Shown: positions 39,001-42,000 of the stretch, in pieces
How the letters are laid out: every line of letters starts with the position of its first letter
Position numbering within the stretch: the first letter of the stretch is position 1
DNA from: an uncultured bacterium
GTDB taxonomy: Bacteria > Planctomycetota > UBA1135 > GCA-002686595
Assembly: GCA_943787795.1 (NCBI GenBank)
Contig: CALSNU010000004.1
Coordinates: forward strand, 224,001-288,000
Direction of reading: 5' to 3'
Length of the DNA stretch: 64,000 nucleotides
Made by a program: the position numbers

Positions 39001-42000
39001 ATGCGCGGAAGCTCGCGATATCGCCACCGGGGTCCACGGCCGGCTCGGCAGCGAAGGCGAAGACGGTGGCCGAGGTCCCGAGGCTGCAGACGGAGACCCC
39101 GGGGCGCGTGGCCCCCGCACCGATCGCGCTCATCATGTTGTCGCCGCCCCCTGCCGAGACCGGGGTGCCGGCCTCAAGGCCGAGCGCCGCCGCCGCGGCG
39201 CCGGAGAGCTCCCCGGCCGGCGCCGCACAGGAGCGGAGCGGGGGGAGGAGATCCGCGAGCCCGGGGGCAGACCGCTCGACGGCCTCAGCGTCGTACGATC
39301 CGCTGGCGGGGTCGAAATAGCCCGTCCCCGACGCGTCCCCCACCTCAGTGAAGAACTCGCCGGTGAGGAAGAGGTTGATGTAGTCGTGGGGCAGCAGCAC
39401 TCGCTGCACCCGTGCCCACACCGCCGGCTCCCGCTCGGCGGACCAGCGGAGCTTCGGCGCGGTGAAGCCCGCAGGGATCGCTCGGCCGAGCTCCGCCGAG
39501 AGTGCGGCGGCCTCCTCAGCGGCGGAGGTATCGCACCAGAGCTTGGCGGGTCGCAGGACCTCATCCCCGGCGCCCAGCAGGACCGCCCCGTGCTGTTGCC
39601 CCGAGACCCCGACCCCGCGTATGCGCGGGCCCAGCCCCAGGGACACCTCGCGGACCGCGGCGATCACGGCCTCCGTCCAGGTGCCCGGATGTTGCTCCGC
39701 GTGTCCAGCGGGGAGCCCCCCGATCAGGTCATAGGACCGAGCAGCCCGGGCCACGACGCTGCCGGAGTCCACGTCTACGAGCACCGCCTTGGTGCTCTGG
39801 GTGCCGACGTCGACGCCGAGGAACAGGTCCCCGTCACCGCTCATCCGCGGGCCCCCATCATGTGCTCCACCATGATCTGGTCGAGCCGCTCGTACCTGAG
39901 CCCCTTCGCGCCGATGCCCTCGGCGTCGACCTCCAGGCCCCGAAGCGCGGCGCCGCGCTCCGCGCTGTAGCCGGCGCCGACGTCCACCAGGTTGGCCGCC
40001 ACGGTTCCAGCAAGGATCTCCCGAACGTCAGGGTCGGCGTCGAATGCGGCCGCTCGGGCAGCGAGGAGCTTGTAGGTGCGCATGCAGCCGCTCGCGAACT
40101 CCCATACGCCGTCGTGGTCCTCGGTCCGGTAGGCGTGAGCATCGAAGTGGCGCGGCCCCTCGTAACGGGCGCCGCCGCCGGTCCCCTCGAGCAGCCGGAC
40201 CAGGAGGAACGCCTGCTTCAGGTCCTCGGACCCGAAGCGGAGGTCCTGGTCGTAGCGGCCGATCCGCTGCCCGTTGAGGTCGATGTGGAAGAGTTTGCCG
40301 CACTCCATGGCTTGACCGACCCCGTGGACGAACGAGAGCCCCGCCATGGTCTCGTGCGCCACCTCCGGGTTGACCCCGACCATCTCGCTGTGGTCGAGGG
40401 TCGAGATGAAGTGGAGCATGTGGCCCGTCGTCGAGAGGTAGATGTCACCCCGCGGCTCGTTGGGCTTGGCCTCGAGGGCGAAGCGCATGTCGTAGCCCTG
40501 GTCCTTCACGTATCCGCAGAGGAAGTCGATCGCGTCGCGGAAGTTCGACAGCGCGGTCCGCGGGTCCCGGCAGGCGTCGGCCTCGGCGCCCTCGCGGCCT
40601 CCCCAGAACACGTACGTGCTGGCCCCGAGCTCGACGCCGAGGTCGATGGCGTCCATGGTCTTACGGATGGCGAAGGCCCGCACCGCCGGGTCGTTCGAGG
40701 TGAACGCGCCGTCCTTGAAGATCGGCTGGCTGAACAGGTTGGTCGTGGCCATGGGGCAGACCACCCCAGAGTCGGCCATCGCCCTCTTGAAGTCCCCCAC
40801 GATCCGGTCACGCTCGGCGGCCGAGCTCCCGAACGGGACGAGGTCCTCGTCGTGAAGGTTCACGCCCCAGGCGCCGATCTCTCCCAGCTTGGCGACGATC
40901 TCGCAGGGGTCGAGAACCGGCCGAACGGCGTGACCGAAGGGGTCGCGGCCGGGGTTGCCCACGGTCCAGAGGCCAAAGGAGAAGCGATCGTCGGGGGTGG
41001 GGTCGAGGGAGCTCATGGTGGCTCTCGACTCTAAGGGACGGAGCCCGGCCCAGGAACGGTGGCCAGGGAGTCCCCGGCAGCTGAGACCCGGAATAGCAAG
41101 GCACCCCGGCGGAGCGAACCGCCGGGGTGCCTGCGTGACGAGGCGCGACGGGCGCCCGGTGTGGGGCGCGCAGCCGCGAGCGCGATCAGAGGATGTAGGT
41201 CTTGTCCTTCTTGATGCTCTTCATCTTCACCTTGTGCTTGGCGAGGGCAGCCTTGAGCTTGGCCTCGTCGAGCTTCTCGTCCTTCTTCATCTGGATGATG
41301 ATCTCCGGACCGGCGTAGACATCGGCGACGTTGTCCCCGAGGGACTTCATGAGGGTCTCACGGACCCTACCGGCGGTGTCGCTTCATGTCAGGCCGGGCG
41401 TCTTGGCGACGTAGGCCGCCTTCGCCCGCGCCGACTCGCGGCTGGTGAGGGAGACCCACTTGAGGCGCTGCTTCTCGATGGCGGCCTTCAGGGCCTTTTC
41501 GTCCACCTTGACCCCCTTCTTCAGGGTGAAGCTGGCGCGGGTGCCGCTCCAGAAGATGCGTTCGATGTCGTCGTCCTCGTCGAGGACAGTGAGGAAGGCC
41601 GCACGGGCCTTCTTGCCCGCGCTTCAGCCCTTGCCGGAGGCATGGAGGGTCCAGACGGTGATCTTGTCCTCCTTGGCCTCCTTCTTCTTCGTGTCGCCCT
41701 TGACGGCGGGGCCGTCGTCACCCTTCTGGGCGATGGGCTTGGAGGTGGGGCCTTCCTGGTGGGCGGTGACGAGAGCGCTTGAAGCGATCCCGGCCACAGC
41801 CACGAGCAGGGCTCCCTGAACCAGTCTTGTGATCATGAGATGAGGGTTGCTGAGCGCGGGCCAGGAAGCGGCCCGCTGGTTTGTATTACCCGGTGTTCTT
41901 CGCCGCGGGGCTACCGCGCGGACGAGAGGGTTGTGTGAAAACCTCGCGCGCCTCCGGATGACCCTGGGGAATATGCCCCTACCGCGTCAGGGCGCGGCAT

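Follow-up and report, generated by a model that had tools for sequence, protein, structure and literature searches.

A hidden gene for a predicted exported tandem HMA selenoprotein in marine Planctomycetota

Three apparent gene fragments on the minus strand of the window (the whole 64,000-nt stretch of planctomycete DNA that was analyzed) are a single gene whose exported product carries two selenocysteines (Sec, U). The product is probably a divergent tandem HMA protein, in which Sec is kept at the first Cys position of the HMA loop and the second Cys is lost. Selenoproteins of this kind are already known, but this branch of them has not been catalogued. The best explanation as a whole, held with moderate confidence, is an exported tandem HMA selenoprotein that would bind soft metal ions.

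Reading frame and conservation of the internal TGA codons

The frame was read on the minus strand from 41836 to 41189 with TGA translated as U. It begins at an ATG (41834-41836) and encodes 216 residues (CDS 41189..41836, minus strand), matched continuously from residue 1 to 216 in relatives that also hold two internal TGAs. This translation reproduces the single 216-codon ORF with two in-frame TGA codons that the initial annotation had read from three gene calls; translation with table 11 splits the frame into ORFs of 70, 40 and 54 aa. The first Sec codon (U71, 41624-41626) is TGA in 53/53 distinct sequences of that site. The second (U151, 41384-41386) is TGA in 29 of the 30 loci found by protein search and TGC (Cys) in locus L034, making 29 U/U loci and one U/C locus. 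A third TGA, at 41186-41188, had been proposed as the real stop, and this is borne out: no CGUG-loop hairpin follows it, and the terminal stop is TAA or TAG in 12/30 relatives, where both internal TGAs are still kept, and TGA in the window gene and 18/30 relatives.

The genome counts given previously were reproduced exactly, with a match in 54/174 genomes of the family (about a third) and in 24/68 genera. Two in-frame TGAs were present in 53 of these 55 matches and one in the other two, of which G131 runs off its contig and G114 carries a Cys codon (TGC) at site 2. The description of the family as obligately di-Sec is therefore too strong, given the U/C form in G114 and Cys at site 2 in database proteins P0016, P0028 and P0031. 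Both TGA columns and the frame are retained down to 32% protein identity, so chance is not a viable explanation for the two stops. Further related loci were gathered with a DNA pattern spanning the second TGA and its hairpin. Most of the 30 places in a sample of the phylum carry two TGAs, and family-profile matches, variant architectures included, occur in 28/401 sampled Planctomycetota genomes. By GTDB the window genome is congeneric with Saltatorellus ferox, and the gene is carried by two harmless strains in culture, Saltatorellus ferox Poly30 and Engelhardtia mirabilis Pla133.

The fragments could instead be taken at face value: the TGAs would end translation, the locus would be a decayed pseudogene or three small genes, and the conservation would have another cause. 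Gene callers do give fragments, and the databases are rich in 45-86 aa pieces of the protein. Against this stand the 53/55 matches that keep both TGA columns in frame at such low identity, the existence of Cys forms, and the covarying hairpins and full Sec machinery described below. In addition, conservation resumes immediately 3' of each internal TGA with no start codon, and the middle ORF lacks one where its conservation sets in. We consider termination very improbable.

Approximately 20 full-length members emerged when 1.84 billion representatives were searched with the family profile, a result that overturns the earlier statement that databases hold no full-length protein. The companion claim, that no Cys form exists there, fails on P0002, a full-length Cys/Cys protein in a cluster of four from four contigs. 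Approximately 15 full-length members show W at both Sec columns, representing TGA called as Trp. The presence of W in public proteins of relatives is the one point in favor of a lineage in which TGA has been reassigned (e.g., to Trp or Gly) and the two residues are not Sec. This reading is scarcely credible, since the W residues come from gene calling with other codes on short contigs, and fragments in the same 90% cluster as the W forms end exactly ahead of the W. Moreover, TGA terminates the window gene and 18/30 relatives, and the genome, at 69.6% G+C, carries tRNA-Sec, selA, selB and selD. As noted before, the U-containing window protein has no relevant Pfam or NCBIfam match at E<=10, and the family is missing from Pfam, NCBIfam r20 and the 119-family table of a 2026 review. 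Because the branch is in none of these, public annotation yields nameless fragments or Trp at the Sec positions.

Selenocysteine machinery and downstream hairpins

The genome encodes tRNA-Sec, selA (456.6 bits), selB (327.9 bits) and selD (327.2 bits), the last of which carries an in-frame TGA of its own. Co-occurrence with selA is uninformative, because nearly the whole family has the gene (164/174 genomes, and 55/55 of high quality).

Both internal TGAs are followed by a candidate SECIS hairpin, identified by covariation and frozen codons. Hairpin 1 (41594..41612, minus strand) has a 7-bp stem here with an invariant 4-bp GGCC/GGCC core, a CGUGC loop, and encodes A-R-A-A. Hairpin 2 (41352..41368, minus strand) has a CGUGA loop, encodes (R/K)-V-R-E-T-L, and has a stem of 6 bp here versus 7 bp in most relatives. 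The initial annotation placed a conserved hairpin at +17 after both TGAs; presence and conservation hold at both sites, and the spacing needs correction, as the core stem begins 14 nt past the first TGA and 17 nt past the second.

In hairpin 1, 83% of alignment cells are paired compared with 74.5% in shuffles, with double changes in 4/7 pairs; in hairpin 2, 96.7% are paired, with double changes in 3/7 pairs. The score of each hairpin was reached by 0/500 shuffles, and RNAalifold independently predicts both. Synonymous codons within the hairpins are frozen. GCC-CGT-GCG in hairpin 1 has a codon entropy of 0, compared to 1.2-1.9 bits at other conserved residues, and GTC-CGT in hairpin 2 is frozen, the lone CGG variant belonging to the Cys-form locus L034. 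The same CGUG-loop hairpin also lies 3' of in-frame TGAs in unrelated proteins. Against Rfam, the stretch 41100-41900 matched no SECIS family and had chance-level matches only. An alternative stem at the first site, the minimum-energy fold of the window sequence, was rejected, having no double-change pairs and pairing not above shuffles.

The features expected of a bacterial selenoprotein were found together: a conserved UGA, a downstream stem-loop with G/U in the apical loop, tRNA-Sec with SelA, SelB and SelD, and Cys homologs. On these sequence grounds, this is almost certainly a real Sec gene at whose two internal UGAs selenium would be inserted.

Relationship to HMA domains and known selenoproteins

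The product is predicted to be exported via a signal peptide at approximately residues 1-25 (41762..41836, minus strand), read by eye as a basic n-region and a hydrophobic core. Hydrophobic N-termini were seen by eye in 30/30 loci, in agreement with the signal peptide first proposed. The window protein has no lipobox Cys, and many relatives are predicted lipoproteins, with L-x-x-C lipobox-like ends in L037, L039, L041, L042 and L112-L119. A Lys/Glu/Asp-rich linker follows at approximately residues 26-56 (41669..41761, minus strand); it varies in length, aligns poorly and is predicted to be disordered, with pLDDT <50 over residues 7-52 in the AlphaFold2 model. The remainder of the model (overall pLDDT 80.8) confirms the two-domain architecture described earlier, with two beta-alpha-beta-beta-alpha-beta units and each U directly before helix 1, in the beta1-alpha1 loop. 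Domain 1 spans residues 57-137 (41426..41668, minus strand; E58-67, H73-84, E91-97, E100-105, H113-122, E126-136) and contains Sec71. Domain 2, with the HMA fold by model and structural matches, spans residues 138-216 (41189..41425, minus strand) and contains Sec151. The domains are homologous to each other by hhalign (97.4%, E 1.5e-11), with U71 aligned on U151.

The initial annotation read both units as HMA/Atx1-like, each with one Sec where chaperones have CxxC, and this reading is supported, with Sec at the first Cys. In a PDB profile search the two highest-ranking hits were HMA domains, from CopA and ZntA, but at E values of 0.066 and 0.18; U151 falls on the first Cys of G-M-x-C-x-x-C in that alignment. 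An hhalign comparison to U-x-x-C HMA selenoproteins gave 90% and E 1.6e-6, a score that is inflated because the DNA pattern used to choose the set itself codes for some of the motif being aligned. In a structural search of 48,161 chains with domain 2, ranks 1-10 were all HMA domains, led by ZntA (1mwz; Z 9.8, rmsd 1.9 A over 70 residues). Structural matches to domain 1 are generic ferredoxin-like folds, and Foldseek hits to the whole model mixed HMA with ACT domains and designed ferredoxin folds (TM 0.07-0.36) and did not discriminate.

Pfam HMA (PF00403) gives no match at E<=10 for the window protein and detects 0 of the approximately 20 full-length core-family members. Among 123 family-profile matches, P0093, P0102 and P0123 pass Pfam HMA and P0119 is under the cut-off. 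Planctomycetota relatives with the same hairpin and a G-M-T-U-x-x-C motif also pass this model, and the window protein is therefore described as a divergent tandem HMA selenoprotein. Its membership in the HMA superfamily is likely.

The second Cys of the HMA loop is absent, its position being occupied by G, A or S in domain 1 and by T, A or other residues in domain 2, and no other Cys, His or Met is conserved in the alignment. A lone domain therefore could not form the classical two-ligand site. In L122-L125, one Sec domain is followed by domains with neither Cys nor Sec, indicating that a chain does not always require two Sec.

To our knowledge, the Sec-containing HMA proteins predicted years ago have not been studied. 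Those already predicted in print are MerP, a cation (P-type) ATPase with UxxC, and NF041115 (UxxU_metal_bind), so the family can be called undescribed only with respect to this branch. Like the window protein, NF041115 is a small HMA-type protein with two Sec and with Sec in the metal-binding loop; its two Sec share a U-x-x-U loop within a single domain, whereas the window protein has one Sec in each of two domains and no partner residue. The U-x-x-U motif is absent from the window protein, and the NF041115 model matches neither it nor P0002 and P0004. Relatives reached by the profile come near or over this model (P0093, 97.9 bits against a cut-off of 95; L047, E 8.5e-20). MerP and the P-type ATPase also have Sec in place of the first Cys in their HMA loop, and MerP is likewise exported, but both keep the second Cys, are recognized by standard HMA models, and consist of single domains or pump parts. 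The NCBIfam C-U-motif model is absent among matches at E<=10, and the window protein has no C-U motif.

Classical HMA metallochaperones share the fold of domain 2, including the ZntA N-terminal domain, CopZ, Atx1/Ccc2a, CsoZ, GolB and NmerA (Z 8.0-9.8, rmsd 1.9-2.9 A over 62-72 residues). They resemble the window protein in placing the reactive residue at the helix 1 N-cap and, in CopA and ATP7B, in tandem repeats; they differ in having Cys-x-x-Cys rather than a lone Sec and, except for MerP, in being cytoplasmic. The other exported HMA selenoproteins of Planctomycetota found in this analysis (L045, L047, L053, L055, L059, L074, L103 and L126-L129) have a signal peptide or lipobox and one to three domains, and several share the CGUG-loop hairpin, encoding V-R-E/A-x-L. 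Unlike the window protein, they keep a second Cys or Sec (G-M-T-U-x-x-C, U-x-x-x-C or U-x-x-x-U) and pass Pfam HMA (L047, E 4.2e-23; the profile-reached P0093, E 1.6e-34).

Genomic setting and proposed function

The locus is best explained as a monocistronic gene of a marine Planctomycetota bacterium. Contigs from four marine metatranscriptome runs in four studies fall on it, with DNA carry-over possible. One of 764 nt brackets the gene (41096-41850), suggesting transcript ends near these positions, and covers both TGAs, and the contig of run X17 terminates at 41096. A terminator-like 13-bp G+C-rich hairpin (41100..41131, minus strand; z -5.7 over a 101-nt stretch) lies between the gene and xylA. 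In runs X17, X18 and X20, parts of a 1.6-kb stretch have no RNA-contig cover, which says nothing about the neighboring genes.

The earlier statement that no neighbor is conserved holds beyond the genus; within it, a PEP synthase-like gene (ppsA) and the xylose isomerase and xylulokinase genes (xylAB) adjoin. Neighbor clustering over 70 loci found no metal-related gene as a conserved neighbor. The largest cluster owed part of its size to antisense shadow ORFs of this very gene and was rejected, and sulfatases near seven loci were set aside as probable background, being common in the phylum.

In the mechanism we propose, SelB would read both internal UGAs as Sec, guided by the CGUG(A/C)-loop hairpin 14-17 nt downstream. 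The exported product would combine a charged, flexible linker with two HMA domains of the CopZ/Atx1/MerP type that are homologous to each other. Outside the cytoplasm, the exposed selenolates of these domains may ligate a soft metal, whether Cu(I), Hg(II), Ag(I) or Cd(II). Most simply, two Sec, from the same chain or from a pair of chains, would hold the ion in a two-coordinate site, and the protein may serve in the periplasm as a tight-binding buffer or chaperone for the metal. Metal binding by Sec is, on balance, a reasonable expectation; the identity of the metal and the sharing of one site by the two Sec are inferences. More tentatively, and less probably than not, the two lone Sec may form one inter-domain bis-selenolate (Se-metal-Se) site, or a reversible diselenide that gates it.

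The same gene and fold could also place the selenols in redox chemistry or chalcogen transfer in lieu of metal binding, through an intramolecular U71-U151 diselenide switch, reduction of peroxides or disulfides, or a sulfane sulfur/selenium carrier on a single exposed Sec, like the single-Cys carriers. The single chalcogen per domain with no second ligand, the L122-L125 relatives with one Sec domain, and the lack of metal-related neighbors all agree with such a role, and the 2026 review classes the majority of predicted selenoproteins as redox proteins. However, the protein has neither conserved peroxidase residues of the Gln/Trp/Asn type nor a resolving Cys, its fold and nearest sequence relatives are metal-binding HMA and not thioredoxin-like, and sister clades that keep U-x-x-C, U-x-x-x-C or U-x-x-x-U pass HMA or NF041115 models. 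A redox or transfer role is rather unlikely, and soft-metal binding is the reading we prefer.

The hairpins supply a clean SECIS consensus for the phylum, and a simple DNA pattern made from it revealed further hidden selenoproteins. If the two Sec do meet in one inter-domain site, widespread marine Planctomycetota would be using, outside the cytoplasm, a naturally occurring soft-metal site built entirely of selenium, which would bind Hg(II), Cu(I) or Ag(I) far more tightly than Cys-based chaperones do. The cultured carriers make the role of a lone selenolate on an extracellular metal-chaperone fold directly testable.

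Reading frame and conservation of the two TGA codons

Reading through two in-frame TGA codons on the minus strand reproduces the single frame proposed in the initial annotation, a 216-residue protein at window positions 41836..41189. The internal TGAs encode selenocysteine (Sec, U) 71 at 41624-41626 (site 1) and U151 at 41384-41386 (site 2), and a third TGA at 41186-41188 terminates the frame. Under translation table 11 the stretch is split into ORFs of 70, 40 and 54 aa, and no start codon is present where conservation begins in the middle piece. The host genome (4.71 Mb, 8 contigs, 69.6% G+C) has one tRNA-Sec with anticodon tca among the 45 tRNAs found by ARAGORN, as well as selA (456.6 bits; cut-off 267.9), selB (327.9 bits; cut-off 242.25) and selD (327.2 bits; cut-off 125), the last with an in-frame TGA of its own. 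selA adjoins selD at G000:C5:184589-187201 (loci L001 and L010) of this genome; this selD, a Sec form, contains a single in-frame TGA, and the hairpin downstream of it has a GUG loop and a sequence unlike those of the tandem Sec-HMA gene.

Within the GTDB family, matches were found in 54 of 174 genomes and 24 of 68 genera, and 53 of the 55 matching places contain exactly two in-frame TGAs, the same counts as obtained previously. The two exceptions are a match in genome G131 that is broken by a contig end, and G114, in which the second site is TGC (Cys) while its congener G115 keeps TGA there. selA was detected in 164/174 genomes of the GTDB family and in all 55 high-quality ones, a distribution that is consistent with Sec use and has no discriminating power. 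The initial annotation had raised the concern that, with the third TGA as the real stop, insertion and termination contexts might not be told apart. Of 30 extracted loci, 18 have TGA as their true stop, 8 TAG and 4 TAA, and since the stop codon varies while the internal TGAs are kept, the TAG and TAA stops of these relatives (12/30) remove that concern. The gene with two Sec codons is real.

The neighbors of the gene are a divergent PEP-synthase-like gene (42028-44802) and, downstream, xylA-xylB; a G+C-rich hairpin with a perfect 13-bp stem (41100-41131) separates it from xylA. These neighbors recur only within the genus, and no conserved metal-related partner was found among the neighbors of the family's loci. 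The stretch is present, in whole or in part, in 20 public runs (14 studies), every one of marine, seawater or estuary origin; six are RNA libraries. Contigs from four metatranscriptome runs of four studies map to the gene, and these contigs carry no strand or level and may include DNA carry-over. They include a 764-nt contig from run X17 (41096-41850), which crosses both TGAs and ends just beyond the 41100-41131 hairpin, a contig from X20 with an end at 41852, and a 1054-nt contig from X5. A monocistronic transcript is weakly suggested.

SECIS-like hairpins downstream of both TGAs

At site 1, an invariant GGCC/GGCC core with a CGUGC loop is located 14 nt past the TGA, and in many genomes the stem is lengthened to 7 bp. 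Site 2 has a 7-bp stem starting 14 nt past the TGA, with a GGUC core at 17 nt and the loop CGUG(A/C). Among 53 distinct site-1 sequences, 83.0% of cells pair versus 74.5% in shuffles, four of seven pairs have changed on both sides, and 0/500 shuffles reach the covariation score; the site-1 sequences from loci L043-L111 had been chosen independently of this hairpin. For site 2, 26 distinct TGA-bearing sequences from 30 protein-found loci were used, with the Cys-form L034 excluded; 96.7% of cells pair, three of seven pairs show double changes, and again 0/500 shuffles reach the score. Both stems were recovered by RNAalifold unguided. A rival stem at site 1, the minimum-energy fold of the window sequence, showed zero covariation and was rejected.

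Codon usage is frozen within both hairpins: Ala77 is GCC in 19/19, Arg78 CGT in 22/22 and Ala79 GCG in 21/21 in hairpin 1, and Val158 is GTC in 21/21 and Arg159 CGT in 21/22 in hairpin 2. Conserved Arg, Gly, Thr and Ala residues outside the hairpins have codon entropies of 1.2-1.9 bits. Only the Cys-form L034 has CGG at Arg159, as expected if the SECIS imposes the codon constraint. The frozen codons indicate that part of the protein motifs noted in the initial annotation (A-R-A-A and V-R-E-T-L) is imposed by the RNA.

Scanning the whole genome for this hairpin after a TGA gave nine matches, of which four have an open frame on either side. Two of the four are the sites of the tandem Sec-HMA gene and one falls in a contig C5 gene whose product is exported and has a CxxCH motif, which indicates that one SelB target serves unrelated genes. 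The C5 gene lies outside the window, on the minus strand (G000:C5:about 48764-49658). It encodes a haem-c motif (CxxCH), and its in-frame TGA (D-T-A-U-S-G) precedes the CGUGC-loop hairpin also seen in the tandem Sec-HMA gene; a relative occurs in locus L100. Its product is a third candidate selenoprotein, from another family.

Relationship to the HMA superfamily

All 30 loci have an N-terminus with a basic start and hydrophobic core (judged by eye), and in several relatives a lipobox-like L-x-x-C closes the signal. In the AlphaFold2 model (pLDDT 80.8, pTM 0.69; 152 residues at pLDDT of at least 90), residues 1-52 are disordered and are followed by two beta-alpha-beta-beta-alpha-beta units, each with its U just ahead of helix 1. 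The two units are homologous (hhalign 97.4%, E 1.5e-11), with U71 aligned to U151. Pfam and NCBIfam searches of the window protein gave no relevant match. Against 48,161 representative chains (VIA-align), the first ten structural matches of residues 138-213 are all HMA domains, the best being ZntA (Z 9.8, rmsd 1.9 A, 70/73 residues), with TM0320, Ccc2a, plant HMA domains, CsoZ, ATP7B, CopA and GolB making up the rest. For domain 1 by itself the matches are generic ferredoxin-like folds, and Foldseek with the whole model gives mixed matches. Against the PDB, the family profile matches the HMA domain of B. subtilis CopA best (E 0.066) and that of ZntA second (E 0.18), with U151 placed on the metal loop's first Cys. 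The fold and the HMA matches agree with the earlier structural reading of two HMA-like domains with one Sec each.

When the 123 database proteins matching the family profile were searched with Pfam, HMA was the only family passed by more than one (P0093, P0102 and P0123); one further match, an unrelated repeat protein, passes another family. A DNA pattern over site 2 retrieved 69 stretches from public genomes, 59 of them encoding family members. Six of the ten without a family match (L045, L053, L055, L059, L074 and L103) encode exported proteins whose motif is G-M-T-U-G-x-C or P-N-M-T-U-G-x-C, and they share the site-2 hairpin with the tandem Sec-HMA family. L047 and its duplicate loci L073 and L104, counted within the 59 through weak tblastn matches, carry the G-M-T-U-G-x-C motif in tandem, and L047 is over the Pfam HMA cut-off (E 4.2e-23). 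hhalign aligned the family to five G-M-T-U-G-x-C proteins (90%, E 1.6e-6), a score that is inflated because the pattern used to pick the five itself codes for part of the motif being aligned. We conclude that the protein is a divergent branch of the HMA superfamily, outside the Pfam model and without the second Cys.

Sec-containing HMA proteins have been predicted before. MerP and the ATPase are listed with Sec forms in a 2008 ocean survey (PMC2398784) and are entered likewise in a 2022 review (PMC9312934). The HMA-related entries in Table 1 of a 2026 review, which holds 119 families, are a cation-transporting ATPase (UxxC), NF041115 (UxxU, 2 Sec) and a MerT-type transporter, and none of these entries has the tandem lone-Sec architecture (PMC13188914). 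Our literature search, which did not extend to the S9 candidate table of PMC4807772, found no published description of such a family. The tandem lone-Sec protein shares Sec in HMA with the known proteins but differs in being tandem, in its lone Sec and in escaping HMA models; it is this form that is new.

Family members, variant relatives and possible function

A profile of 24 members searched against 1.84 billion representative proteins (E<=0.001) gave the 123 matches, mostly 45-86 aa pieces covering the segments between TGAs. About 20 are full length, including P0002 (199 aa, E 1.9e-46; representing four sequences from four contigs), which has Cys in both Sec columns, and site 2 is Cys in P0016, P0028 and P0031. 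The initial annotation's claim that databases contain neither a full-length protein nor a Cys form fails, since both are in the collection it had searched. P0003-P0020, full-length public metagenome gene calls, have Trp in both Sec columns, and P0129 and P0134, fragments in the same 90% cluster, stop exactly ahead of the Trp, which indicates that the Trp is TGA translated under another code on short contigs. Calls of this kind are a systematic annotation artefact through which selenoproteins stay hidden.

Judging by its named records, the family belongs to Planctomycetota; its cultured carriers are Saltatorellus ferox Poly30 (of the window's GTDB genus) and Engelhardtia mirabilis Pla133. In an even sample of the phylum, 28/401 genomes and 23/287 genera have profile matches, mostly with two TGAs. 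Family-bearing contigs (L062, L083 and L095) also occur in MAGs that carry the labels Paracoccaceae, Candidatus Binatia and Candidatus Paceibacteria, likely through mis-binning or mislabelling; L062 shares 99% identity with a member of the GTDB genus to which the window belongs. The single Pfam-HMA match of the host genome is a Sec lipoprotein outside the window (G000:C2:109226-109387, minus; L129:1501-1662) with an L-V-A-C lipobox, G-M-T-U-G-A-G-C, and a different SECIS-like hairpin downstream (8-bp stem, loop GGUCU). At E<=0.01, this genome yielded no HMA domain of the Cys-only type.

Exported HMA proteins of other Planctomycetota vary in their Sec content: L126 (G363:C17) has three tandem G-M-T-U-x-x-x-C domains, L127 (G431:C151) one U-x-x-x-U, and L128 (G354:C220) U-x-x-x-U in both domains, for four Sec. 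L122-L125 (G373, G175, G514 and G458), P0119, P0120 and P0123 have a lone Sec in the first HMA-like domain only (G-V-G-U-S or G-V-T-U-S) and later domains without Cys or Sec, and P0102 has neither residue.

These analyses show a Sec-decoded, exported, tandem HMA-fold protein, and we infer that its selenolates bind a soft metal. Metal binding is favored by the HMA fold, by Sec at the first metal-ligand position, and by sister clades with two ligands per loop. A classical HMA metal site is disfavored, since each domain has a single chalcogen and the alignment contains no other conserved ligand. Relatives with a single Sec domain weaken a strictly intramolecular two-Sec site and leave room for a redox or chalcogen-carrier role, which the Sec may have instead. 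For metal binding with one chalcogen per domain, the simplest model is one in which a single metal would be held by two Sec, either of one chain or of a dimer.
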